NCBI GenBank assembly: GCA_937930175.1
Contig: CALGLP010000006.1
Coordinates: 129,749-193,748, forward strand
Length of the DNA: 64,000 nucleotides
Reading direction: 5' to 3'
Origin: an uncultured bacterium
Lineage (GTDB): Bacteria; Omnitrophota; Gorgyraeia; Zapsychrales; Aceulaceae
The notes under the pieces are model-generated. The model did not search any database. It was not told where the DNA came from and saw nothing but the letters and a program-made list of their open reading frames with translations. Numbering within the stretch: position 1 is the first letter of the stretch; every line of letters starts with the position of its first letter. Below, in pieces: positions 11,690-49,766 of this stretch. Made by a program: the position numbers and the translations under genes.

Positions 11690-12271
11690 TTATCGGAATT
11701 TCTTCTCAATCACTTTTTCAAATTCGGTGATTTGTTTTGTAATAGCATGTTTGTTTTCTTGAGCTTTTTTAAGTCGTTCTTGATTTTTTCTGATTTCTTC
11801 TTTTAATTTTTCTTGTTGCTTGTCAATGATGGTCTGAGCCTTGGCAAGATCATTCTCAAAGCTTGCTTTTAAGGTCTCGAGGGTTTGTTGTTCTTTGGCG
11901 AGCGCCTCCTGGGCGCGTTCGACTTTTTTTTGGGCGCGATCGATCTTTTCTTGGAGTTTTAGCCTTTCTTTTTCCAAACGCTCATCTTCTTCACTTAAGA
12001 ATTTTTCTAGCTTTTTCTTAGCGTCGGTAACATCAGTTTGCGCTTTTTGTTCCTTCAAACGGGCCTCGCTCATTCTTTCAGTATATTTATCGAGTTCTTT
12101 TTTTTCTTCCTCCGTTAATTGTTTTTGCCGTAATCGCCAGATCTCAAGATTTTCTTTAAGTTCGTCGTTGTAAAAAGCTTTAGGTTCTTGCGCATAGCCG
12201 ACGCCGATTTGGTTTAGTACAGAGAACATGATGAGGGGTAAAAAGACAGAAAGATTTGGTGTTTTTATCAT
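11690..12271 (-). CDS. secreted coiled-coil protein (possibly Skp/OmpH-like), hypothetical
   Basis: 193 aa. Signal peptide then a low-complexity K/E/Q-rich heptad coiled coil. Confidence 0.4.
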   Translation of the reverse strand: MIKTPNLSVFLPLIMFSVLNQIGVGYAQEPKAFYNDELKENLEIWRLRQKQLTEEEKKELDKYTERMSEARLKEQKAQTDVTDAKKKLEKFLSEEDERLEKERLKLQEKIDRAQKKVERAQEALAKEQQTLETLKASFENDLAKAQTIIDKQQEKLKEEIRKNQERLKKAQENKHAITKQITEFEKVIEKKFR

Positions 12272-12277
12272 TTAAGT

Positions 12278-12354
12278 TGGTGGCGGCGAGTGGATTTAAA
12301 CCACTGACCGATCGGGTATGAGCCGAGTGCTCTATCAGGCTGAGCTACGCCGCC
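12278..12354 (-). tRNA. tRNA-Met (anticodon CAT; elongator or tRNA-Ile2-lysidine type)
   Basis: Acceptor GGCGGCG/CGCCGCC with G1-C72 pair (so not initiator), anticodon loop CTCATAC, T-loop TTTAAAT, CCA encoded. Confidence 0.75.
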
Positions 12355-12411: not shown

Positions 12412-12717
12412 TTATAAATGATAAAAGATGATGTATAAGAAAAAAAGAATGATCCCTATGGCGATGATATAAAAGTCATTGAAGTAAAAGAAATCCCTGA
12501 GGCGTTCACTGGAGGTGTATTCATAGTGTGTGCTTTCTGCAACAACCGATCCAGCGTTTTTGATGCCAGCAATATCCGCGCGCTTAAAGCGAATAAATTG
12601 ACCCGCAATACGATAGGATAAAAGCTTTCCTTGTTCGGAAAGTTCCATGATTTTCTTTTCCGAAACCTTTAAGATTTGGGCTGCTTCTCGGACTGAGATA
12701 AATTGATCGGTTGTCAT
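12412..12717 (-). CDS. excisionase-family (HTH_17) helix-turn-helix protein with C-terminal transmembrane anchor
   Basis: N-terminal ISVREAAQILKVSEKKIMELSEQGKL…IRFKRADI matches the excisionase/MerR-type HTH. C-terminal IIAIGIILFFLYIIF is a hydrophobic helix. Confidence 0.55.
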   Translation of the reverse strand: MTTDQFISVREAAQILKVSEKKIMELSEQGKLLSYRIAGQFIRFKRADIAGIKNAGSVVAESTHYEYTSSERLRDFFYFNDFYIIAIGIILFFLYIIFYHL

Positions 12718-12732
12718 AGGGTGAGCTTTATT

Positions 12733-13248
12733 TTAGCCTTTAGCTTTTTCGAGTGTGATCCAATGGTCAATCTTGGCGCGTTCAAATCGCCAGTCATTGC
12801 CCTCTTTGATCCCGGGAAGTGTGCCGGTATTTGCCATTTCTAAAACAGATGAGAGATCTAATTCTAGATAGCGTGCTGTTTCATCTAAGCTGAATTGTTC
12901 TTTGAACATCTGACATTGGCCTTCAAAAATCGCCCCTTCCACGATATTGAGCTTAGGTGTTGAGATGTTGCCAAGGAGTTCTGCCGAAGGCATCAAAACG
13001 AGCATTGTCGAGGCCACAACATCTCCTTTGACTTTGCCGGCAATGATTACGCTTTCCCCTGTGATCCTGGCTTCGACATTTGCTGATTCTCCAACAGTGA
13101 GCGTGCCTTTGGTTTGAAGGGATCCTGAGAAGAGGCCGTTGATGCGTAAATTGACAGGGTCGTTAAAGGTTAGCGTTCCTTTCATTTCGGCATTGATTTC
13201 AATCGCTTTTTCTTCCGGTTCATTTTTTTTTCGATCGCGTAGCCCCAT
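12733..13248 (-). CDS. bactofilin-domain protein fused to a C-terminal excisionase-family HTH
   Basis: Central beta-helical bactofilin repeats (GTLTF…LRINGLFSGSL…GTLTVGESANVEARITGESVIIAGKVKGDVVAS…LNIVEGAIFEG). C-terminus LDETARYLELDLSSVLEMANTGTLPGIKEGNDWRFERAKIDHWI is an HTH_17-type domain. Confidence 0.6.
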   Translation of the reverse strand: MGLRDRKKNEPEEKAIEINAEMKGTLTFNDPVNLRINGLFSGSLQTKGTLTVGESANVEARITGESVIIAGKVKGDVVASTMLVLMPSAELLGNISTPKLNIVEGAIFEGQCQMFKEQFSLDETARYLELDLSSVLEMANTGTLPGIKEGNDWRFERAKIDHWITLEKAKG

Positions 13249-13262
13249 GATTTCCTCCTCGT

Positions 13263-13715
13263 TTATTCTTTAAAAAGTGTTTCGAGTTTTTTCTCAAGAG
13301 AACGTAAGCCATAAAGTACCCAAAAAACGATAAAGGTTACAATCACGGCCGCGGTCCAAAATCCAGCACCGACCGCAATGCCAATACACGAGACAACCCA
13401 GAGACTTGCGGAGGTTGTTAGCCCGGAGACGTTGTCCCCTGAGCGAATAATGGTTCCAGCGCACAAAAAACCAATCCCTGTGACAATGGCCGCAATAATG
13501 CGCGTTGGATCCCCGAGATTAATATATCTATGTATATCAGAAACATAATATGAAGTCAACACGAGTAGCGTAGAGCCGACGCCAATCAAGATATGGGTTC
13601 GTAGCCCTGCCCCTTTGTGGCGTAAATATCGCTCTGCGCCAATAATGCCCGATAAAATGACGATGAGGGTTGTTTTGGCAAGGATTTCGATCATTTCATA
13701 TACGATTGGGCTCAT
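13263..13715 (-). CDS. MgtC/SapB family membrane protein
   Basis: Four-helix MgtC pattern (ILSGIIGAERYLRHKGAGLRTHILIGVGS…). Start moved to the internal Met that abuts the tsaD stop. Confidence 0.7.
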   Translation of the reverse strand: MSPIVYEMIEILAKTTLIVILSGIIGAERYLRHKGAGLRTHILIGVGSTLLVLTSYYVSDIHRYINLGDPTRIIAAIVTGIGFLCAGTIIRSGDNVSGLTTSASLWVVSCIGIAVGAGFWTAAVIVTFIVFWVLYGLRSLEKKLETLFKE

Positions 13716-14707
13716 TGATGATTTCTCCTTTTTTGATTGGTGGTATGTGCCTGATGAAATCCTAATCCTGCAACCATGGCGGCATTGTCCATGCACAAAG
13801 CAAGATCAGGGAAAAAAACACGAAGGCCGTGTTGTGCGCCTTCGTGGATGAGCGTTTTACGCAAGAGTGAATTTGCCGCAACACCGCCCCCAACGATGAG
13901 TGTTTTTATTTTCTTGGCTAAGCAGGCTTCAATGGTCTTTTTGGTTAGGGATGCGACAACGCTTTGTTGAAAACTGTAAGCAATTTTTTCTAAGGGAAGC
14001 TTTCGAGGATCCCTGTTGCGCTTGGCAAAATAATAAACAGCGGTTTTGATACCGCTAAAACTAAAGTCATGGCTGTTGGGCAAGGCAGCGCAGGGAAAAA
14101 TAATTTCTTCGTTGGTTCCCTTGTGAGCTAAGCGGTCGAGCACTGGGCCACCAGGATAGCCAAGGCCTAAGATACGCGCCACTTTGTCGTACGCCTCCCC
14201 CGCAGCGTCATCGCGGGTTTGGCCAAGGAGTTCAATGGATTGAAAGTTTTTAACAAGAAAGATGCTTGAGTGTCCTCCGGAGACAACAAGGCCGATCGCG
14301 GGAAGTTTTGGTTGGGATGTCATCGGTGGTGCATTTTTAAATTGTAGAAAATTTGCGTATAAATGTGCAGATACATGATTGATTTCAATCAGCGGGATGT
14401 TGAGTCCGTAGGCAAGCGCGCGGGCAAAACACATGCCAACAAGGAGCGAGCCAATCAGTCCTGGTTGAACAGTGACAGCAATAGCATCGATGGCAGATAA
14501 TTTTTTGCCTGAAATACGGAGGGCATCTTGAATCACAAAATTCATAAGCTCAAGCTGTTTGCGTGATGCGATTTCAGGAATGATGCCGCCATATTTTTTG
14601 TGATTGGCAAGACTTGAAGCGATCACATTGGCAAGAATGGTTTTGCCATTCTTCACGATGGAGGCGGCGGTTTCATCACAGGAGGTTTCAATGCCGAGGA
14701 TATGCAT
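13712..14707 (-). CDS. tsaD: tRNA N6-adenosine threonylcarbamoyltransferase
   Basis: 331 aa. MHILGIETSCDETAASIV N-terminus and HxxH-type metal motifs of Kae1/TsaD. Confidence 0.9.
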   Translation of the reverse strand: MHILGIETSCDETAASIVKNGKTILANVIASSLANHKKYGGIIPEIASRKQLELMNFVIQDALRISGKKLSAIDAIAVTVQPGLIGSLLVGMCFARALAYGLNIPLIEINHVSAHLYANFLQFKNAPPMTSQPKLPAIGLVVSGGHSSIFLVKNFQSIELLGQTRDDAAGEAYDKVARILGLGYPGGPVLDRLAHKGTNEEIIFPCAALPNSHDFSFSGIKTAVYYFAKRNRDPRKLPLEKIAYSFQQSVVASLTKKTIEACLAKKIKTLIVGGGVAANSLLRKTLIHEGAQHGLRVFFPDLALCMDNAAMVAGLGFHQAHTTNQKRRNHQ

Positions 14708-41969: not shown

Positions 41970-42320
41970 TTAGTCTATCCATGTACACGAATATGTTAAA
42001 GTTTTGCACTTAGTCGCATCGCCGGTTGTCGCAGTGCAATCTATACCATTGGCTCCGTTTGCAGCACAGGTAGGCTTACCGCAATTAGAGGCAACATTAA
42101 CAGTAGTAGGAACAAAGGCGTTAGTGAAAGCGCCTTTTAAGGTTGATTGCGCCGCTACTTCTCGGCAAATTGAAGCAAGAGCTGAGTTACCTGCTCCTTC
42201 TCTTGAGCTCTTTAGTGTATCTGCAAATTTGGGAAGTGCGATACTTGCTAGAATACCCAAGATAATAATGACAATAATAATTTCAAGTAGAGTAAAGCCT
42301 GATTTTTGATGAACTCTCAT
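41970..42320 (-). CDS. type IV pilin (PilA/GspG-like, candidate major pilin)
   Basis: MRVHQKSG/FTLLEIIIVIIILGILASIALPKF canonical prepilin leader and alpha1-N. Cys-rich C-terminal region. Confidence 0.75.
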   Translation of the reverse strand: MRVHQKSGFTLLEIIIVIIILGILASIALPKFADTLKSSREGAGNSALASICREVAAQSTLKGAFTNAFVPTTVNVASNCGKPTCAANGANGIDCTATTGDATKCKTLTYSCTWID

Positions 42321-42416
42321 TGTGTTCTCCTTTGTTTTAATAGTTAATACCACATTTCTTAACCTGCTTTAAATATAGCATATGCGTACCTTTCACGCAA
42401 TAAAACATTTATTTTT

Positions 42417-43673
42417 TTAACCACCTCCTCCTGCCGTGGGTGCTCCCAAGGAAGACATATTGAGCATGGGTAAAAACATAGCAACAATAATTGTTCCAAT
42501 GGTGCCACCCATGACAATGAGCATGATCGGCTCGAAGGTGGCTGTAAAGCGTTGCGTGGCGATGGCAAGAACACGTTGATAATACTCTGCGACATGATTG
42601 AGCATTTTGGCGAGCTCTCCTGTTTCCTCCCCTACAGCGATCATTTGGATTGCCATAGAAGGGAAAAAGTTAGTTTTGGCCATTTCCTCTGAGATCATTT
42701 TTCCTTCACTGACGTTTTTTTTAATTTGTTTAACAAGCCCTTCACAAATTTTGCTTCCGATCAGGCGCTCAATGATGTCTAGCGCTTGGATGATTGGAAC
42801 CCCGCTTTCAACAAGGATGGTCATTTGAGAAGCAAATTTTTCCATGATGGCGGTCTTTTGCAGATCACCCAAGACTGGTAATGAAAAGAGCAACTGCTCC
42901 CACTGCACTTTCCCGATAGGCGTTGCGAGATATTTTCTTATCATCATAATGAAAATAATGATTGAGCCAAGAAGAATGAAAAATTTAGATCGGATAAAGC
43001 TAAAAAGATCTAAAAGCCCCTGGGTTAGGCCTGGGAGATTAGACCCCAGGGTGGAATATAACTCTTGGAATCTTGGTCCAATGAAAATAGCAAAGACAAG
43101 AATGGCTCCGACAACAGCAGTCAGAAGAATCGCTGGATAAATGAGCGCGGAAATAATTGCTGATTTTAGGGCTTCGGCTTTTTCTACGTATATGGTAATT
43201 TTATTTAAGACCCTCGGCATGGTACCTGAGGCTTCACCGACTTCGATGAGGCTGGTCCAGAGGGTATCAAACACCTTGGGGTAACGGGAGAGGGCTTTGT
43301 TTAAGCTGATGCCTTGTTCGACATCGTTACGAACGTGCTGAAGTATTTCATAAAATTGTTTACTTTCTGTTTGTTCTACAACGATGGTGAGGCTTCGCAT
43401 CAAGTTGACTCCTGAATCAAGCATGGTGGCGAGTTGGCGAGCCAGCAAAAGTTTGTCCTGCGTCGCAACGCCATTACGGGTGAATTTTCGTGATATTTTT
43501 ATTTTTTGGGATGATCCTTGAGGGTTTATTGACAGGATTCCCTCCGTCACGGCAAGAATGAAATAGCCTTTTTGTTGGAGATCAGCAATTAATGCTTCTT
43601 TGCTGTCAGCTGCGGTTGACGCTTTGATCGTTTTTCCAGAAGAATCTTTGACTGTGTAGGTAAAGTCGGGCAT
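42417..43673 (-). CDS. pilC: type IV pilus assembly platform protein PilC (GspF family)
   Basis: 418 aa. Duplicated T2SSF domains, 3 TM segments. Confidence 0.85.
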   Translation of the reverse strand: MPDFTYTVKDSSGKTIKASTAADSKEALIADLQQKGYFILAVTEGILSINPQGSSQKIKISRKFTRNGVATQDKLLLARQLATMLDSGVNLMRSLTIVVEQTESKQFYEILQHVRNDVEQGISLNKALSRYPKVFDTLWTSLIEVGEASGTMPRVLNKITIYVEKAEALKSAIISALIYPAILLTAVVGAILVFAIFIGPRFQELYSTLGSNLPGLTQGLLDLFSFIRSKFFILLGSIIIFIMMIRKYLATPIGKVQWEQLLFSLPVLGDLQKTAIMEKFASQMTILVESGVPIIQALDIIERLIGSKICEGLVKQIKKNVSEGKMISEEMAKTNFFPSMAIQMIAVGEETGELAKMLNHVAEYYQRVLAIATQRFTATFEPIMLIVMGGTIGTIIVAMFLPMLNMSSLGAPTAGGGG

Positions 43674-43674
43674 A

Positions 43675-45390
43675 TTATAAGAGTGTAATGGCTAAAACTT
43701 CTTCAAGGCTTGTTTGGCCTTCTTTGACTTTTTTAATACCTGTTTCAAATAACGTGCTCATACCGTTTTGACGTGCGGCTTCCTTGATGTCAGTGTATAG
43801 GGCATTTTTAGCAATCATTGATCGGATAGCATCATCCACAAAGAGGACCTCTGCGATGGCAATCCTTCCTTTGTAACCGATGTGATTACATTTTTCACAA
43901 CCCTTGGCGCGATAAATAAGTTCAGATTTTAAATTAAATTTTTCTTTTTGTTCTGCTGAAGGCTCGTAGGCTTCTTTGCAGCTTTGACAGAGTTTTCGCG
44001 CTAAGCGCTGGGCAACGATGATATTTAAGGAAGGTGTTAGTAAGTACGATGGAATGCCGATATCTAAAAGGCGCGTCACCGCGGATGCCGCGTCATTGGT
44101 GTGCATCGTGCTTAAGACAAGATGTCCGGTCAGGGCTGCGCGTAGACAAATCTGAGCGGTTTCAAGGTCGCGCACCTCTCCGACCATGATAATGTCCGGG
44201 TCTTGACGCAAGAAGGCGCGTAGGGCTGCGGCAAAGGTAAAGCCAATGTCGGGCTTGACATGAATTTGATTGATGCCGTCGAGTTTGTATTCAACAGGAT
44301 CTTCGGCCGTCATGATATTTTTCTTGGAATCAATAATTTCGCTTAATGCAGAATAGAGTGTTGTGGATTTGCCGCTTCCCGTTGGGCCTGTGATAAAACA
44401 TAGTCCATAAGCCGCACGGATAGCTGTGCGTATTTGCTCGAGCTGTTTGGTGTCAAAGCCTAGGGTCGCAATATCTAAATTGACAGCACTTTGGTCTAAG
44501 ATGCGCATAACAACTTTTTCACCCCAAATTGTTGGAATTGAAGAAACACGAAGATCGACCATGCGGTCTTCAAGTTTGGCGGCAAGCGAGCCATCTTGCG
44601 GAAGTCTCTTTTCCGCAATGTCAAGCTTGGAAAGGATTTTAATTCTTGAAATAATGGGGAGCAAGAGGTGCCTTGCCGGTGGTGGAATCTCGTAAAGGGC
44701 CCCATCGATACGATAACGCACGGAAATTTTTTCTTTATGGGATTCAATATGAATATCGCTCGCGCGTTGATCAATCGCCTGGCGAATAATCAAATCAACA
44801 ACCTTGATAACTGATGCGTCGCCTGCCCTTTCTGTAAGCTTGTCCACGCTAAGCTCTGTGTCCTCGCGCTGTTTTTGATTAACAAGGAGCTCTTCTTTTT
44901 CTTTAGGTGCCTCATAGGTGCTTTGTGCGGCTCTAGGTGATGATGATTGGCCACCCTTGGCATAGCAATCTTCAATAGCCAGAGCGATATCTTTTTTTGT
45001 TGCTAAGACAAGACTAAGTCCATAACCAGTTATGGTGCGTAAATTATCAATGAGGAGAAGATCGAGGGGATCAAAAATCGCACAAGTTAGCGTGTTGCTA
45101 TTGAGGGACAAGGGCAAGACAAAATTTTTCTGGGCAAAATCTTTTGGGATGAGCTTCAGAAGCTCAGGTTTCTGAGGCTTTAATAGTCCAGAATTGTACG
45201 AAAGATAAGGAATGTTTAGTTGTTTGGCAAGGCAAGCAATAATATCATTTTCTTTGACAAATCCAAGCTGGAGCAGGATTTCACCAATGCGGCCACGTTG
45301 TTTTTTTTGGGCATCAATGGCTTGGTTAAGTTGGGTCTCGGTCAGAGCACCTTGTTGGATAAGAATTTCGCCTAAGCGTAATCGTGTCAT
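43675..45390 (-). CDS. pilB: type IV pilus assembly ATPase PilB (GspE family)
   Basis: 571 aa. N-terminal T2SSE_N domain, Walker A GPTGSGKST, Asp/His boxes, tetracysteine CxxC…CxxC zinc motif. Confidence 0.85.
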   Translation of the reverse strand: MTRLRLGEILIQQGALTETQLNQAIDAQKKQRGRIGEILLQLGFVKENDIIACLAKQLNIPYLSYNSGLLKPQKPELLKLIPKDFAQKNFVLPLSLNSNTLTCAIFDPLDLLLIDNLRTITGYGLSLVLATKKDIALAIEDCYAKGGQSSSPRAAQSTYEAPKEKEELLVNQKQREDTELSVDKLTERAGDASVIKVVDLIIRQAIDQRASDIHIESHKEKISVRYRIDGALYEIPPPARHLLLPIISRIKILSKLDIAEKRLPQDGSLAAKLEDRMVDLRVSSIPTIWGEKVVMRILDQSAVNLDIATLGFDTKQLEQIRTAIRAAYGLCFITGPTGSGKSTTLYSALSEIIDSKKNIMTAEDPVEYKLDGINQIHVKPDIGFTFAAALRAFLRQDPDIIMVGEVRDLETAQICLRAALTGHLVLSTMHTNDAASAVTRLLDIGIPSYLLTPSLNIIVAQRLARKLCQSCKEAYEPSAEQKEKFNLKSELIYRAKGCEKCNHIGYKGRIAIAEVLFVDDAIRSMIAKNALYTDIKEAARQNGMSTLFETGIKKVKEGQTSLEEVLAITLL

Positions 45391-46913
45391 TTATTGATTC
45401 GTTGTTGTTCAGTCAGGAAAAGGGCTTTGTTGATTTCTTTTCTTTTGGCTTCTGAGATGCTTTGCTCGCGAGTTGTCATGCTAGCAGTAAGAGTTTTGGG
45501 CGTTATGTTATTTTGATCATCAATGATTTTAGGGGTAATGAAGATCACAAGTTCACGCTCTTGATGCGCTTTTACTGTGTAGCGAAAAGCTCCTCCAATC
45601 AAAGGAATGTCGCCTAAGAGCGGGACCTTTGTAACGGTATTCGCGTTTGTATTTTTTTTAAGGCCTCCTAAAAAGATTGTTTCATTGTCTTTAACGCGGA
45701 GAATAGTTTTACTCGAGCGTTCTTCAGGGTCTTTGTAGTTTTCGCCGGATCGAGGATCTTTAATTGAACCGATCCGTGCCTCAATCACCTTGGGCACGAT
45801 CGCCATAGTGATTTCTCCTGTCTCGATATTGATTTGGGGAGTGACCGTTAAAAAGATACCTGTTTCTATGCGCTCTGCTTCAACTGTTGAATCTGTAACG
45901 CCGCTTCCGCCCCCCGTTGTTGTTGAGACTGTTCCAATGGCTTCGTTGCTTGATATTTTGATTTCAGCGCTTTGATTATTCAGGGTTAAAATTTTAGGAT
46001 TTGCAAGATTCTTTGTATCGACTTGATTCTTTAAGAATTGCAGCATAACGGTAAGGCCTGAGGCATCAATGGTTCCTGCGGTATATTCAGGATCGAGTTC
46101 AAAGCCTTTAGATAAAATCTTATTTTGATCCCAAGGGTACAGAACAGAACGCTTAGCCCCTGAAAAGCTAAGAGCTGTGCCATATTGGACCCCAAGTTGG
46201 TCAGCGGTAGTTTTAGAAATATCAAGCATTTCAACTTGAATAAGAATTTGAGGTGTAGGGGCATCGAGTTGCGCGATTGTCTTTTCAATAATAGGAAATT
46301 GGCTTGGGATATCCGTGACAATCAAGCTGTTGGTGCGAGGGTCTTCAATCACCTTGCCATTATCAGGCGTCAAAACGCTTTCGAGAACAGCAATCATTCC
46401 ACCTCCTGTGTTGCTATCACCTATTGTGCTTGTCGATTCTGTTTTTGTAGAAGCACTATTGCTGCTTTCGCTTCCAAGGGTTGTCAAGAGTTTTGATGTA
46501 GAAACAGTTGCGTTCTTAAGGGTGTAAACGCGCGTGATGACTTCGACGGTAGGCTTTGTTACTTTTTTTACGGTAAAGATATCGCTTCCGGGCTCGACTT
46601 CGTAGATTAAGCCATTGGCATTCAGGATACGTTCAAGGGCTTCTTCCACGGGGACATTTTCAAAAAAGAGTGTCACCTTCATGCTGGCAATATCCGTGGC
46701 TGCAATAAAATTCATTCCAGATTGCTGAGAAAAGATTTTTAGAACGTTGCGCAAGTCCGCATCTTTAAAATCCATCGAAATTTTTTTGGAGTATTCGGGA
46801 TAGACAAATTTGCTAAAACGAGATATTTCAGCAAAGGAAGAATAATGCGTGATAAGGAGAAAGCTAAAAAGGAAGAAAGTGGTTAGAGCGATAGGTGACA
46901 TCTTTTTTTTCAT
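45387..46913 (-). CDS. pilQ: type IV pilus secretin PilQ
   Basis: 508 aa. Signal peptide, N-domains, C-terminal secretin domain (…VPLLGDIPLIGGAFR…). Confidence 0.8.
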   Translation of the reverse strand: MKKKMSPIALTTFFLFSFLLITHYSSFAEISRFSKFVYPEYSKKISMDFKDADLRNVLKIFSQQSGMNFIAATDIASMKVTLFFENVPVEEALERILNANGLIYEVEPGSDIFTVKKVTKPTVEVITRVYTLKNATVSTSKLLTTLGSESSNSASTKTESTSTIGDSNTGGGMIAVLESVLTPDNGKVIEDPRTNSLIVTDIPSQFPIIEKTIAQLDAPTPQILIQVEMLDISKTTADQLGVQYGTALSFSGAKRSVLYPWDQNKILSKGFELDPEYTAGTIDASGLTVMLQFLKNQVDTKNLANPKILTLNNQSAEIKISSNEAIGTVSTTTGGGSGVTDSTVEAERIETGIFLTVTPQINIETGEITMAIVPKVIEARIGSIKDPRSGENYKDPEERSSKTILRVKDNETIFLGGLKKNTNANTVTKVPLLGDIPLIGGAFRYTVKAHQERELVIFITPKIIDDQNNITPKTLTASMTTREQSISEAKRKEINKALFLTEQQRINK

Positions 46914-46924
46914 GAGAACGTTCC

Positions 46925-47371
46925 TTAAGTCGATTGAGTTATGGTTTGATCAATGCGTATTGTAAAAAGTGTATTTAAACGCATAAGGTCAACACCATCC
47001 TTGTGAATATCAACAACTTTTGAATCCTCGATCATATCACCGATCGATACCACTTGATCATTAATAATCGCCTGAGGTCGATCGCTACTCCAAACAAGTC
47101 CGCTGAGGATCACCTTGGGAGGCTTTACCTCTTTTACGGGTTGAACGATTGTTGGCTGAACATTAGTGTCTTTGCCAGGAACTACTATATTTATTATCTT
47201 ATCTGGTTCTTGTACGATTTCAATCTTTTCTTCAACTTTTGGTAGCCATGTTTCGAAAGGGTTTCTTATGTTTAAGGTTTCTTGTAAATCAAGCAAAAGG
47301 TTTTGCGCATATCCTTGCGATGCTGATGCCAGAAGCAGGATGATGGATACTCGAATAATATTATTCTTCAT
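46925..47371 (-). CDS. PilP-like pilus assembly protein
   Basis: Signal peptide, RNPFE motif, C-terminal beta domain (VILSGLVWSSDRPQAIINDQVVSIGDMI…) typical of PilP. Gene order between pilO and pilQ. Confidence 0.55.
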   Translation of the reverse strand: MKNNIIRVSIILLLASASQGYAQNLLLDLQETLNIRNPFETWLPKVEEKIEIVQEPDKIINIVVPGKDTNVQPTIVQPVKEVKPPKVILSGLVWSSDRPQAIINDQVVSIGDMIEDSKVVDIHKDGVDLMRLNTLFTIRIDQTITQST

Positions 47372-48008
47372 GGTTTAATCTCGTTGAGCTAACGGAAATC
47401 TCCCATCCCATAGCTTCTTCTTCTTGCGCTATTGTTTTATTGCGCGCGTTTCGTTGCGACGCGCTACCAGCGCTATTTTTCCATGTATTGATACGTAAGT
47501 TTTCTTTGTTTTTTTCTAATGCTTGCATGAGTGAAAGCATGTTTGCATAGGTTGACGCGAGGGTAAAATTAATAGTTTGAATTGTGTAGTAGTTTTCTTT
47601 TTGAGAACCTGTAGGGGTATAAAAGATCACATCAACGTTGTGGGTTGCCGCAAGATTAATAATGCCTTTGATGATTTCTGTTTCGGTGGGAAAACCTTGG
47701 GGAGTTACTTTAATCAAGGCATCGAGGCGTTTTTTAGCATCTTCCAGCATGATCGCTGTTTTTTGTTTTTCTTCAAGTGCGGCCATTTCATTTTTCATCG
47801 CAGCCATTTTGTCATTGCTGACTTTCCAATAATAGTGCATACCGAAAAGAGTTGTGAGGACCAGGATGCTATTGATAAAGATATCTTTGCGATGATCAAG
47901 GGTTTCGCGAATAGATTGAACGTTGATTTGGCTCATATCAAAATCAAATTTGATTTTGCTTAAGTCTTCAATTTTTATGTTTTGCAATTTTTTAAGGATA
48001 TTATTCAT
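47361..48008 (-). CDS. PilO-like (PilN/PilO family) inner-membrane pilus alignment protein
   Basis: Single TM (ILVLTTLFGMHYYW), coiled-coil region, periplasmic domain. Start moved to MNNILKK. Confidence 0.55.
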   Translation of the reverse strand: MNNILKKLQNIKIEDLSKIKFDFDMSQINVQSIRETLDHRKDIFINSILVLTTLFGMHYYWKVSNDKMAAMKNEMAALEEKQKTAIMLEDAKKRLDALIKVTPQGFPTETEIIKGIINLAATHNVDVIFYTPTGSQKENYYTIQTINFTLASTYANMLSLMQALEKNKENLRINTWKNSAGSASQRNARNKTIAQEEEAMGWEISVSSTRLNHEE

Positions 48009-49587
48009 TGGTTTCGTCCGTTTCAATGATGATTTCAAAGAATGTAACGGGAAAGCCTCCAAGCGTTTCTTTTTTGACTTGCGTGAGCTCAATTTTTTTA
48101 GAATATTTCTTGAAAAAAGCGTTCGAACGTAATCTTTCTAAGAATTCTTCGATGAGGCTTATTTGGCGATTGAGTTTTTCATCATAAGAGTAGCCTTGGA
48201 GATTCACGTAAACCTTGATTTCACGTCGGCCTGTCTCTTGGGGATTACCATAGCCAATATTGAGATTCGATAGCCAAGCACCATCAAGGAGCGCGTCAGA
48301 AATGTTCTTAAGATAGAGGGTCATATGACTTTCAAGGCGAAGTTTTTTGTAGTCAGTTGTCTTTGCCTCAACATCGACAATCATTTTTTCTAGGTCAGGC
48401 TTTGAGGCGTTTTGATATTTCTGAACAAATGTTTTAAATTCAGAAAACTTCTTTTCTAAAGGAAGCGCTTGTGAGCGTGTGATACCGTATAGCCCCCCTC
48501 CTAGACTTAAGCAAATCCAAGCCACGATAATTGTTGTTTTGTAGTTAGGTGTTTGTGTAAGAAAACTTTTTGTTCCTGAGTCAGAGACTTTAGAATGCTT
48601 TAGCTTTCGTGATTTTGCTAAATCGAGATTGAAGCTTGAGGGTGTCGTGTCTGTTAAGCTAATGCCAATGGCGTTGGCCATGTTGGAATGAAGTTCATTT
48701 TCATATCGAAAAAGATTGTTGAGGTTAAGCGATGTTGCTGCAATGCCGAGCTCATCGTTAATTCCTTGCGAAGTTTCCTTAGCGTTTTGATCAGTAAAAA
48801 GATAGATGTGTGTTACTTGACTGCTGGGATTCGCTGCTTTTGGTTGACGATTATAAAATTCAATGGAATTACGGATTTCGCTAGCAAGATTTGCAACGAT
48901 AGATCGAAAATCTTGCTCTGAGCCATCGCTGTTGGCTGTCAGTAGATTAAAGTTGCGGATCAGATGAGGAATTTGCTGGTTCACCACCATGATGGATCCT
49001 TGGCCCTCGATGATTTGAACAATGGCGATTGTTTGGGTGGCATTGGAAAGTTTTTTGACGTGAAGAATCCTTAAAAGACTTAAGATCGAGGGTTCAACCG
49101 ATAGGATTTCAGCGTTGGCGTCTTCAATAATTTTACAATACTGATCGAGCTTGTCTTGGCGTATGGCAAGAAAAAGGATCTGGTTTTTTTTTATATCTTT
49201 TTCCATAAAAGGGATTGCGTGAAAAGCATAAAATAGCTCATCGAGCTTAAAGGGCATGTATCGTGGGGCTTCAAAGGCAATCGCGTTTTCGGTTTCCAAA
49301 GGACTCATGAAGGGTATTGTAAAAGAGCGGAAAATAATATCGCGGACAGGAATTGAGAGTCGCATCTTAGGCTTATCTATATTTCGATCCTTGATTAGCC
49401 TTAGAATTGCTGCGGTTAAATGCACGTCTTCGGAGATAGCCATACCTTCAGCAGAAAGCGGTGGATTGAGATTGTCTGGGATTTGTCGCGGAATGGCTGC
49501 AGAGAAAATAAGTTGATCGCGCTGCATTTCTGCAACGGATAAGAATTCTGATCCCCAGAAAATACCAATTTGTTTCTTGGAGGCCAT
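48001..49587 (-). CDS. PilM-PilN fusion protein (actin-like ATPase-fold PilM domain + TM/periplasmic PilN-like C-terminus)
   Basis: About 529 aa. N-terminal ~350 aa with PilM/FtsA-like pattern, internal TM (TTIIVAWICLSLGGGLYGI), then a coiled-coil/periplasmic tail. Start at MASKKQ, coupled to the upstream small ORF. Confidence 0.6.
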   Translation of the reverse strand: MASKKQIGIFWGSEFLSVAEMQRDQLIFSAAIPRQIPDNLNPPLSAEGMAISEDVHLTAAILRLIKDRNIDKPKMRLSIPVRDIIFRSFTIPFMSPLETENAIAFEAPRYMPFKLDELFYAFHAIPFMEKDIKKNQILFLAIRQDKLDQYCKIIEDANAEILSVEPSILSLLRILHVKKLSNATQTIAIVQIIEGQGSIMVVNQQIPHLIRNFNLLTANSDGSEQDFRSIVANLASEIRNSIEFYNRQPKAANPSSQVTHIYLFTDQNAKETSQGINDELGIAATSLNLNNLFRYENELHSNMANAIGISLTDTTPSSFNLDLAKSRKLKHSKVSDSGTKSFLTQTPNYKTTIIVAWICLSLGGGLYGITRSQALPLEKKFSEFKTFVQKYQNASKPDLEKMIVDVEAKTTDYKKLRLESHMTLYLKNISDALLDGAWLSNLNIGYGNPQETGRREIKVYVNLQGYSYDEKLNRQISLIEEFLERLRSNAFFKKYSKKIELTQVKKETLGGFPVTFFEIIIETDETNE

Positions 49588-49589
49588 GA

Positions 49590-49766
49590 TTATTGCACTT
49601 TCCTTGATTGAGAGCGCAACCACTTATCTATTTCTTTGCGATCAAAACGCCAGACGCCGCCGATTTTGATCCCTGCGATCTTGCGTTGATTAAGCCAGTT
49701 GTAGATCGTCTGCTTTTTCAGCTTAAGATATGCAGCAAGCTCATCAACATCTAATAAGTGATCCAT
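49590..49766 (-). CDS. small excisionase-family HTH (HTH_17) protein, first gene of the pilus operon
   Basis: Not in the ORF track (58 aa): MDHLLDVDELAAYLKLKKQTIYNWLNQRKIAGIKIGGVWRFDRKEIDKWLRSQSRKVQ. Its TAA stop overlaps the pilMN ATG (ATAATCATGG). Same G.WRF.R..ID.W motif as the two HTH proteins at 12.4-13.2 kb. Confidence 0.6.
   Translation of the reverse strand: MDHLLDVDELAAYLKLKKQTIYNWLNQRKIAGIKIGGVWRFDRKEIDKWLRSQSRKVQ

Follow-up and report, generated by a model that had tools for sequence, protein, structure and literature searches.

A bactofilin fused to a winged helix and its tail-anchored winged-helix partner form a conserved gene pair in the phylum Omnitrophota

The gene pair

The bactofilins are cytoskeletal proteins that polymerise into filaments without a nucleotide. 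Here we describe an unusual bactofilin, encoded by open reading frame (ORF) A, together with the gene that follows it, ORF B, on contig CALGLP010000006.1 of an uncultured bacterium of the phylum Omnitrophota. Both lie in a 64,000-nucleotide stretch of that contig (positions 129,749 to 193,748), which was analysed as a whole and is called the window; coordinates without a prefix are positions in it. ORF A joins a bactofilin core to a domain of the winged helix-turn-helix (wHTH) type, and ORF B places a second helix-turn-helix (HTH) domain of this kind ahead of a transmembrane helix. The A-B gene pair is genuine and is conserved across the phylum, and its features are the following.

12733-13248, minus strand: ORF A, a bactofilin-wHTH fusion of 171 residues (ORF list, Pfam and AlphaFold2)
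13207-13248, minus strand: ORF A residues 1-14, the disordered N-terminal peptide MGLRDRKK (model confidence and a census of N-termini)
12910-13203, minus strand: ORF A residues 16-113, the bactofilin beta-helix core (Pfam, phmmer and Foldseek)
12739-12897, minus strand: ORF A residues 118-170, an acidic wHTH (AlphaFold2, Foldseek, and analysis of charge and contact positions)
12412-12717, minus strand: ORF B, a tail-anchored wHTH protein of 101 residues (ORF list and Pfam)
12556-12705, minus strand: ORF B residues 5-54, a basic wHTH (AlphaFold2, Foldseek and column composition)
12469-12519, minus strand: ORF B residues 67-83, the juxtamembrane motif YT..ER..DFFYFNDFY (alignments and AlphaFold2)
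12418-12474, minus strand: ORF B residues 82-100, the C-terminal transmembrane helix (hydropathy and AlphaFold2)

ORF A, a bactofilin with a folded C-terminal domain

The fusion of a bactofilin to an excisionase-family HTH had been proposed in an initial annotation of the window, and a Pfam search bears it out, with both domains above their cutoffs. The Bactofilin family (PF04519) matches residues 16-113 with an E value of 4.5e-24 and 85 bits (cutoff 27.9), covering profile positions 3-98 of 98, and HTH_17 (PF12728) matches residues 120-164 with an E value of 2.4e-8 and 34.5 bits (cutoff 27). The NCBIfam model TIGR01764 ('excise') gives 28.8 bits, which is exactly its cutoff.

The AlphaFold2 model of ORF A, built from a 60-sequence alignment, has a mean predicted local distance difference test (pLDDT) score of 79.6. 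It consists of a disordered N-terminus (residues 1-12, pLDDT below 50), a beta-helix (residues 15-113, pLDDT 86-93) and a wHTH with the order beta-alpha-alpha-beta-beta-alpha (residues 118-170, pLDDT about 66-79), and the linker between core and wHTH is only about 4 residues long. In Foldseek comparisons the core matches the Thermus bactofilin filament 6rib with a target-normalised TM-score of 0.89 and a root mean square deviation (rmsd) of 1.4, and it matches BacA, with a TM-score of 0.66 for 2n3d. The structures matched by the wHTH are BldC, the MerR-family proteins NmlR and SoxR, the excisionases RdfS and Xis, RacA, and CbpM. For the BldC, Xis, RdfS and RacA matches of ORF A and ORF B the rmsd lies between 1.0 and 2.4.

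Conservation spans both halves of ORF A. In the core, Phe108 aligns to the polymerisation residue of known bactofilins (BacA F130, TtBac F105) in phmmer comparisons with 6ria and 2n3d, and is invariant in the 60 homologues. In the HTH, the homologue alignment shows Tyr127, Leu128, Phe155 and Trp163 to be invariant and Trp153 to be almost so. At the N-terminus the family follows the consensus M-[AG]-[LFI]-[RN]-x-[RK]-[KR]. The canonical bactofilin membrane-targeting sequence, as defined by experiment, is MFSKQAKS, of which F2, K4 and K7 are critical (PMC12448750). Compared with MFSKxxK, the ORF A family likewise has a hydrophobic residue followed by basic ones, but shifted by one residue, and position 5 is often Asp. 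Judged from its sequence, the peptide appears to resemble the membrane-targeting sequence rather than to match it.

ORF B, a tail-anchored winged-helix protein

The neighbouring gene had been read as an N-terminal HTH followed by a C-terminal transmembrane helix, and this description holds in Pfam, in hydropathy and in the AlphaFold2 model. HTH_17 matches residues 7-50 with 36.3 bits (cutoff 27) and TIGR01764 gives 33.7 bits (cutoff 28.8). The C-terminal 18-mer (residues 82-99) is strongly hydrophobic, with a Kyte-Doolittle mean of 2.66, and the hydropathy of this end is at least 1.6 in 85 of 87 orthologues. The model, made from 49 sequences, has a pLDDT of 77.6 and comprises the wHTH (residues 5-54), a low-confidence linker (residues 55-68), a short helix (residues 69-79, within blocks of pLDDT 63-89) and a terminal helix (residues 81-100, pLDDT 94-96). 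Since only 1-3 residues follow the transmembrane helix, ORF B is tail-anchored and has neither a periplasmic domain nor a sensor.

By Foldseek the ORF B HTH is closest to BldC (target-normalised TM-score 0.84-0.87), Pukovnik Xis and the RacA DNA-binding domain, and CbpM is matched as well. The most conserved stretch of the protein in the alignments is not the HTH but the juxtamembrane Y-T-x-x-E-R-x-x-D-F-F-Y-F-N-D-F-Y. When a profile of DFFYFNDFY plus the transmembrane tail was searched against other proteins, it found 4 short fragments only and no new architectures.

Conservation of the fusion and of the pair

A sequencing frameshift or assembly artefact was considered as the origin of the fusion and rejected, given that the identical ORF A protein is present on 9 contigs from independent assemblies and that both Pfam domains occur in all of the best 120 of 646 homologues found by a word-indexed search. 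These 120 proteins are 150-190 residues long and, where named, come from Candidatus Omnitrophota. The phylogenetic distribution, which the initial annotation had put forward as a check, is that of a conserved fusion: when one genome per GTDB species was scanned by pattern, relatives were confirmed in 211 stretches, and the fusion is carried by more than 600 proteins and at least 211 species-level genomes. The best 80 loci have titles that read Omnitrophota, generic 'uncultured Planctomycetales' metagenome-assembled genomes, or unlabelled bacteria. A profile search of 1.84 billion cluster representatives returned 22,115 bactofilins; full-length bactofilin-HTH fusions make up only about two dozen distinct clusters at 50% identity.

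ORF B starts 15 nucleotides past the ORF A stop codon. An orthologue of ORF B lies directly downstream of A and on the same strand in 87 of 87 loci, about 80 of them distinct. With alternative start codons allowed, these orthologues are 97-101 residues long and have the HTH and the hydrophobic tail; among the 87 copies a contig end truncates one, and another is shortened. In total 114 homologues of ORF B were found. The gap between the genes ranges from -35 to +120 nucleotides across the 87 loci, and 4-nucleotide start/stop overlaps are common, which suggests coupled translation. A promoter and terminator scan around the pair gave no more sites than shuffled sequence, a result that, between the two genes, fits co-transcription. 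The pairing is kept where ORF B is only 31-35% identical and carries a 31-residue insert in its linker (132-residue forms), and also where the flanking genes are others, such as SPOR, PDZ and TPR genes (locus L088) or BatD/TPR and MgtC genes (locus L096).

In the window the two genes also share a reading frame, their start codons being 531 nucleotides apart with TAA and five codons between the genes, and a single stop-codon read-through would yield a 277-residue A-B fusion. The shared frame is probably a coincidence, because the spacing varies elsewhere.

Acidic and basic winged helices

A third HTH_17 domain in the window, matched with 65 bits (cutoff 27), lies outside the A-B module and serves as a comparator.

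49590-49766, minus strand: ORF C, a stand-alone basic HTH_17 protein of 58 residues (Pfam, NCBIfam and BLASTP)

The initial annotation had seen the same HTH in the bactofilin gene and its neighbour, with the motif G.WRF.R..ID.W in all three copies. At the level of the Pfam family the HTH of ORF B is indeed the same; pairwise it is not, as BLASTP gave no alignment for the ORF A HTH (A-HTH) against the ORF B HTH (B-HTH), nor for ORF B against ORF C. The A-HTH and ORF C do align, with 37% identity and an E value of 3e-12. The motif is correspondingly present in ORF A (GNDWRFERAKIDHW) and ORF C (GGVWRFDRKEIDKW) and absent from ORF B (GQFIRFKRADIAGI), which reads GQFIRFKRADI. The nil BLASTP similarity rules out ORF B as a recent duplicate of the ORF A HTH. 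An identity as the methylation-associated defence protein MADS1 (NF047737, cutoff 80 bits) was likewise rejected for ORF A and ORF B, which score 43 and 24 bits; ORF C scores 73.4 bits.

The domains carry opposite charges. The net charge of the A-HTH is -2 to -8 in all 81-83 orthologues, with a mean of about -4.5, and A-type HTHs are at or below 0 in 34 of the 35 full-length fusions of the 50%-identity library. The corresponding means for the B-HTH are +1.7 to +2.9, while ORF C has +4 to +6, a stand-alone Omnitrophota HTH_17 (locus L093) +4, and residues 11-60 of BldC +6.

The DNA-contact residues of BldC (PMC5859096) were mapped onto both domains by a hand alignment that takes the G-K-L turn and the R-[FY] wing as its anchor points. 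By this alignment the A-HTH carries Glu or Asp in place of the base-reading Arg30 in 87% of orthologues, of Arg22 in 99% and of Arg50 in 100%, and its recognition-helix contact positions are basic in 0-4%. In ORF B, at least 88% of orthologues have a basic residue at each of R10, K21, K22, R36, R43 and K45. Its wing and the beginning of its recognition helix keep conserved basic residues, and the equivalents of BldC Arg30 and Lys33 are acidic. A basic DNA-contact surface is thus lacking in the A-HTH and partly present in the B-HTH.

The A-HTH, being acidic and having lost the basic residues of its recognition helix, does not look like a canonical reader of double-stranded DNA. On these grounds it is unlikely to be a canonical DNA binder and looks built to bind protein rather than DNA, and the B-HTH is the more plausible binder of DNA, through the backbone or the minor groove. 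A MerR-like fold is used in protein binding by CbpM. The idea that the filament protein itself carries a DNA-binding domain, as first proposed, is contradicted by the charge of the A-HTH and by the acids at its BldC-Arg equivalents; DNA tethering is conceivable, more plausibly via ORF B than via ORF A.

Genomic setting

The genes around the pair usually come in the order gatB, a ctpA-like gene, a yibQ-like deacetylase gene, tsaD, sometimes mgtC, A, B, a SNase gene, tilS and ftsH. Three of the nearest features in the window are listed below.

13263-13715, minus strand: MgtC-family membrane protein, 14 nucleotides upstream of ORF A and adjacent to A in 44 of 80 loci
13712-14707, minus strand: tsaD, upstream of A in 75 of 80 loci
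12278-12354, minus strand: tRNA-Met(CAT), 57 nucleotides downstream of ORF B and outside the module (tRNA scan of the window only)

The position of tsaD places the pair within a string of housekeeping genes. Since mgtC adjoins A in little more than half of the loci, it is an optional neighbour, and the A-B pair is the conserved unit. No integrase lies near A-B, and across about 80 loci the pair is flanked by housekeeping genes that are themselves conserved.

Between the tRNA gene and the SNase-like nuclease, at 11690-12271 on the minus strand, the window encodes a 193-residue protein with a hydrophobic, signal-peptide-like N-terminus and a highly charged body rich in Lys and Glu that resembles a coiled coil. 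It has no Pfam match and is kept downstream of A-B in 6 of 80 loci. In a divergent lineage (L088:2289-3946), a SPOR-domain protein and a PDZ/TPR protein precede A-B in place of tsaD and mgtC. SPOR domains bind septal peptidoglycan, and this neighbour is a hint of some connection with cell division or the envelope.

Proposed function and alternatives

We propose that ORF A and ORF B would act as a two-gene cytoskeletal module across the Omnitrophota. ORF A would be a bactofilin in which the disordered C-terminal tail has been swapped for a MerR/excisionase-type winged helix, and ORF B a tail-anchored protein of the inner membrane with a winged helix of its own, kept on the cytoplasmic side by a flexible tether. 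ORF A would polymerise into filaments at the inner face of the membrane, each subunit showing its acidic winged helix as a protein-docking module, possibly a DNA mimic, and the filament would gather ORF B into membrane-bound arrays. This could happen by two routes: the acidic A-HTH may meet the basic B-HTH, or the aromatic-acidic juxtamembrane peptide of ORF B may dock on the A polymer in the way that PbpC docks on BacA by its N-terminal peptide. Any DNA contact would be made by ORF B, and the assembly would then either tether nucleoid DNA to the membrane or occupy the DNA-binding face of ORF B. What the analysis shows is the domains and their folds, their conservation, the strict adjacency of the genes, the asymmetry of charge and the substituted residues; polymerisation, membrane binding, the A-B contact and the choice of DNA-binding partner, if it is either protein, are what we infer. 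Taken as a whole, with A as a polymerising membrane-face bactofilin whose acidic wHTH is an adaptor for B, and with DNA, if any, bound via B, we favour this account tentatively, holding it to be slightly less than an even chance.

The account draws on the identity of the parts, the linkage of the two genes, the charge and contact residues of the A-HTH, the features of ORF B, and the precedents of RodZ with MreB, BacR with bactofilins, PbpC with BacA, and CbpM. Close relatives of the ORF A core carry other C-terminal modules, namely a PilZ domain (P0158) and a transmembrane segment (P0156), and no B gene stands beside them in the two informative loci; such variety fits an adaptor role for the C-terminal domain of ORF A.

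Several points weigh against the proposal. Covariation between the proteins, computed as mutual information with average-product correction over 69 A-B pairs (effective number 49), gives the putative A-B contact no significant backing. The top pairs, A134-B40, A162-B39 and A164-B44, hint at HTH-by-HTH contacts, but that block holds 7 of the top 20 pairs against 4 expected (p 0.086) and is not enriched at the top 50 or top 100. The net charges of A-HTH and B-HTH are uncorrelated (rho 0.04, 69 pairs). The linker of about 4 residues places the HTH at the C-terminal polymerisation interface, where it could alter or block filament formation, and AlphaFold2 leaves the orientation of the two ORF A domains unfixed (predicted TM-score 0.59). 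A fusion paralogue (P0188/P0284) occurs without a B partner, and in P0135, a divergent fusion, the HTH is basic and its recognition helix carries RKW. The wing of ORF A keeps K/R148 (99%), K/R154 (70%) and R157, so that weak or wing-mediated DNA binding by ORF A is conceivable, net charge being a crude proxy. Finally, the mapping to BldC was made by hand, on a BldC sequence the numbering of which fits every residue given in PMC5859096.

A direct DNA tether, the idea behind the initial annotation, would have both wHTHs bind DNA, with the bactofilin array and the membrane-anchored B fixing part of the chromosome, a plasmid or incoming DNA at a membrane or polar scaffold, much as in RacA-DivIVA or BacNOP-PadC-ParB. 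Both domains pass the HTH_17 cutoff and both have the fold that BldC, Xis and RacA show when bound to DNA; since BldC and Xis form head-to-tail multimers on DNA (PMC5859096), an HTH array displayed on a polymer would have high avidity. The basic wing residues of ORF A noted above are retained, and in Myxococcus bactofilins organise ParABS components (PMC5703909). Set against this are the acidity of the A-HTH in all main-clade orthologues, the acids where BldC and RacA carry base-reading Arg, and recognition-helix contact positions nearly devoid of basic residues, when the comparators known or expected to bind DNA (ORF C, the L093 HTH_17 and BldC) stand at +4 to +6. We therefore regard a direct tether as possible but doubtful. 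A bolder form of the favoured account, in which an array of DNA-mimic winged helices on ORF A competes with DNA for the basic B-HTH throughout the phylum, and filament assembly or disassembly switches chromosome attachment or B-dependent DNA organisation, seems unlikely; if true, such competition would make a cytoskeleton-gated DNA tether in very small Omnitrophota cells.

Less probable again is a polymer-gated regulator, in which B (or A) would be a transcription factor with access to DNA switched by bactofilin assembly or membrane state, tuning its own operon or envelope genes. It has a precedent in Bacillus BacR, which is linked to bactofilins, bound by them and kept at the membrane off DNA, and there are envelope genes nearby, encoding the CtpA-like protease and YibQ-like deacetylase and, in L088, the SPOR and PDZ proteins. 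ORF B, however, is an integral, tail-anchored protein without a periplasmic sensor, and no factor that would cleave or release it was identified in the analysis. The pair also sits inside a housekeeping operon, with A 14 nucleotides after mgtC, without a promoter region of its own and with promoter and terminator signals no more frequent than by chance, and neither protein matches the BacR family, DUF4004 (PF13171), at E values up to 1. That A and B are functionally independent neighbours, adjacent by operon inheritance only, would agree with the nil covariation and charge-correlation signal, but it is improbable when the order and adjacency of A and B hold in all of the roughly 80 distinct loci, with B down to 31-35% identity, while mgtC comes and goes, and when the frequent start/stop overlaps suggest coupled translation. 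There is only the slightest chance that the pair is a mobile-element remnant beside tRNA-Met or an assembly or frameshift artefact. The HTH_17/TIGR01764 family does include excisionases, the tRNA gene is close, and there are the weak, below-threshold MADS1 matches. Yet an integrase is absent, the MADS1 scores are far under the cutoff, tsaD, mgtC, SNase, tilS and ftsH flank the pair in conserved order across the phylum, and the identical fusion recurs in independent assemblies, with relatives in at least 211 species. The specific candidate of an integrative-element excisionase was rejected on the absent integrase and the housekeeping synteny.

Bactofilins are widespread, but the choice and holding of clients by them are known for few cases only. 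The A-B module adds a naturally occurring example of a folded domain, client or adaptor, joined directly to the polymer and supplied with a dedicated membrane anchor, conserved across an uncultivated phylum within its housekeeping gene core. With 171 and 101 residues, the two proteins offer a tractable test of whether a winged helix can connect a cytoskeleton or act as a DNA tether gated by a filament. If either the DNA-tether or the DNA-mimic explanation were true, the module would represent a new mode of coupling the chromosome to the membrane.

Other winged-helix and bactofilin architectures

ORF C had been noted as heading a pilus operon, and it does: a PilM-like gene starts 5 nucleotides after its end, and secretin, T2SSE ATPase, T2SSF and pilin genes come next. 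The operon, at 41970-49587 on the minus strand, encodes the PilM-like product as a fusion protein, and about 290 nucleotides of AT-rich intergenic DNA lie upstream of ORF C, which is possibly a dedicated pilus regulator.

Paralogous Bactofilin-HTH_17 proteins of 187-188 residues are represented by P0284 (L095:6001-6567) and P0188 (L090:1743-2306). The N-terminus of this group, MKFFSQKKRN, looks like a canonical membrane-targeting sequence; the HTH is very acidic (-7), and a B partner is missing. The genes next to it encode an actin-like protein (Pfam Volactin) and a 465-residue ParA-like ATPase with an AMPK1_CBM domain, and further neighbours are a MamF_MmsF-family membrane protein and two uncharacterised proteins of about 217 residues. 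The locus looks like a cytoskeletal gene cluster. A magnetosome cluster at L095 is not supported, with MamK at 21 bits against a cutoff of 400, and the MamF_MmsF family is not known to be restricted to magnetotactic bacteria.

P0158 (L097:768-1529) is a Bactofilin-PilZ fusion of 253 residues with a core closely related to that of ORF A, and is followed by a hybrid histidine kinase/response regulator and then a sigma-54 activator. Upstream of it lies a 225-residue membrane protein that is 36% identical to one downstream of P0188 (L090:2369-3154), which suggests a second conserved family of membrane partners. HTH_17 domains also occur as tandem repeats, with 3 in P0163 (231 residues) and 8 in P0189 (479 residues), an unusual poly-winged-helix architecture.

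Comparison with known systems

Several systems join an HTH or a membrane protein to a polymer. In Bacillus subtilis the bactofilins BacE and BacF bind the HTH protein BacR (YhbD), draw it to the membrane and keep it from binding DNA, and the BacR and bactofilin genes are linked (PMC13649987). The likeness is one of function only. BacR belongs to the DUF4004 family and is soluble and separate, with about 210 residues, whereas of the two Omnitrophota HTHs one is fused to the bactofilin and the other is anchored by a transmembrane helix. The fusion nevertheless gives independent support for the recently reported bactofilin-HTH link, and is a Rosetta-stone-like hint that bactofilins and HTH proteins have been coupled recurrently in distant lineages.

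ORF B shares its architecture, and that alone, with RodZ, the HTH of which binds MreB and not DNA (PMC6946637): a cytoplasmic HTH at the N-terminus, then a juxtamembrane linker and a single transmembrane helix. The HTH of RodZ is of the XRE type, that of ORF B of the HTH_17 type; RodZ has a periplasmic RodZ_C domain and ORF B has none; and the partner of RodZ is the actin-like MreB, where the candidate partner of ORF B is a bactofilin. A bactofilin client proper is PbpC, which binds BacA polymers through the aromatic-acidic peptide MNDWTLPPYKFDD and can stand in for the membrane-targeting sequence of BacA (PMC12448750). Like ORF B, with its invariant ER..DFFYFNDFY, it is a membrane protein, bitopic in the case of PbpC, with a short, conserved aromatic-acidic cytoplasmic peptide. 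It differs in being a cell-wall synthase of the PBP1A type with its peptide at the N-terminus, far from the membrane, whereas the ORF B motif abuts the transmembrane helix and there is no enzymatic domain.

In the chromosome-anchoring systems RacA-DivIVA and BacNOP-PadC-ParB/ParA, a MerR-like wHTH (RacA) or ParB is tied to a scaffold that is polar or polymeric, and in Foldseek the A-HTH and the B-HTH both have the DNA-binding domain of RacA among their structural neighbours. These DNA binders, however, are basic and have a base-reading Arg where ORF A has an acid, and their tethering works through separate adaptors rather than a fusion or a transmembrane helix. BldC, Xis and RdfS are the closest solved folds for the A-HTH and the B-HTH and oligomerise head-to-tail, but they are stand-alone DNA-architectural proteins or recombination directionality factors, and A and B have no integrase or mobile element with them.

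The initial annotation held that this architecture is not among the characterised bactofilins, and the fusion is indeed absent from the searchable bactofilin literature, in which no paper joins a bactofilin with an excisionase or HTH_17 domain, or a bactofilin with Omnitrophota; the names given to the proteins in databases are unspecific ('polymer-forming cytoskeletal protein', 'excisionase family DNA binding protein'). With the canonical bactofilins, namely Caulobacter BacA, Thermus TtBac and Helicobacter CcmA, ORF A shares the PF04519 beta-helix, the polymerisation Phe, and a short N-terminal peptide of hydrophobic and then basic residues. The canonical proteins begin with MFSKxxK and end in a disordered tail, whereas the ORF A family begins with a sequence like MALRDRK and has a folded wHTH after a linker of about 4 residues, and an obligate tail-anchored partner gene belongs to ORF A only. 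The novelty lies in a bactofilin to which a folded winged helix is fused and which has a tail-anchored partner dedicated to it, a pair for which we infer a function in gathering a membrane-bound winged-helix protein on a polymer.

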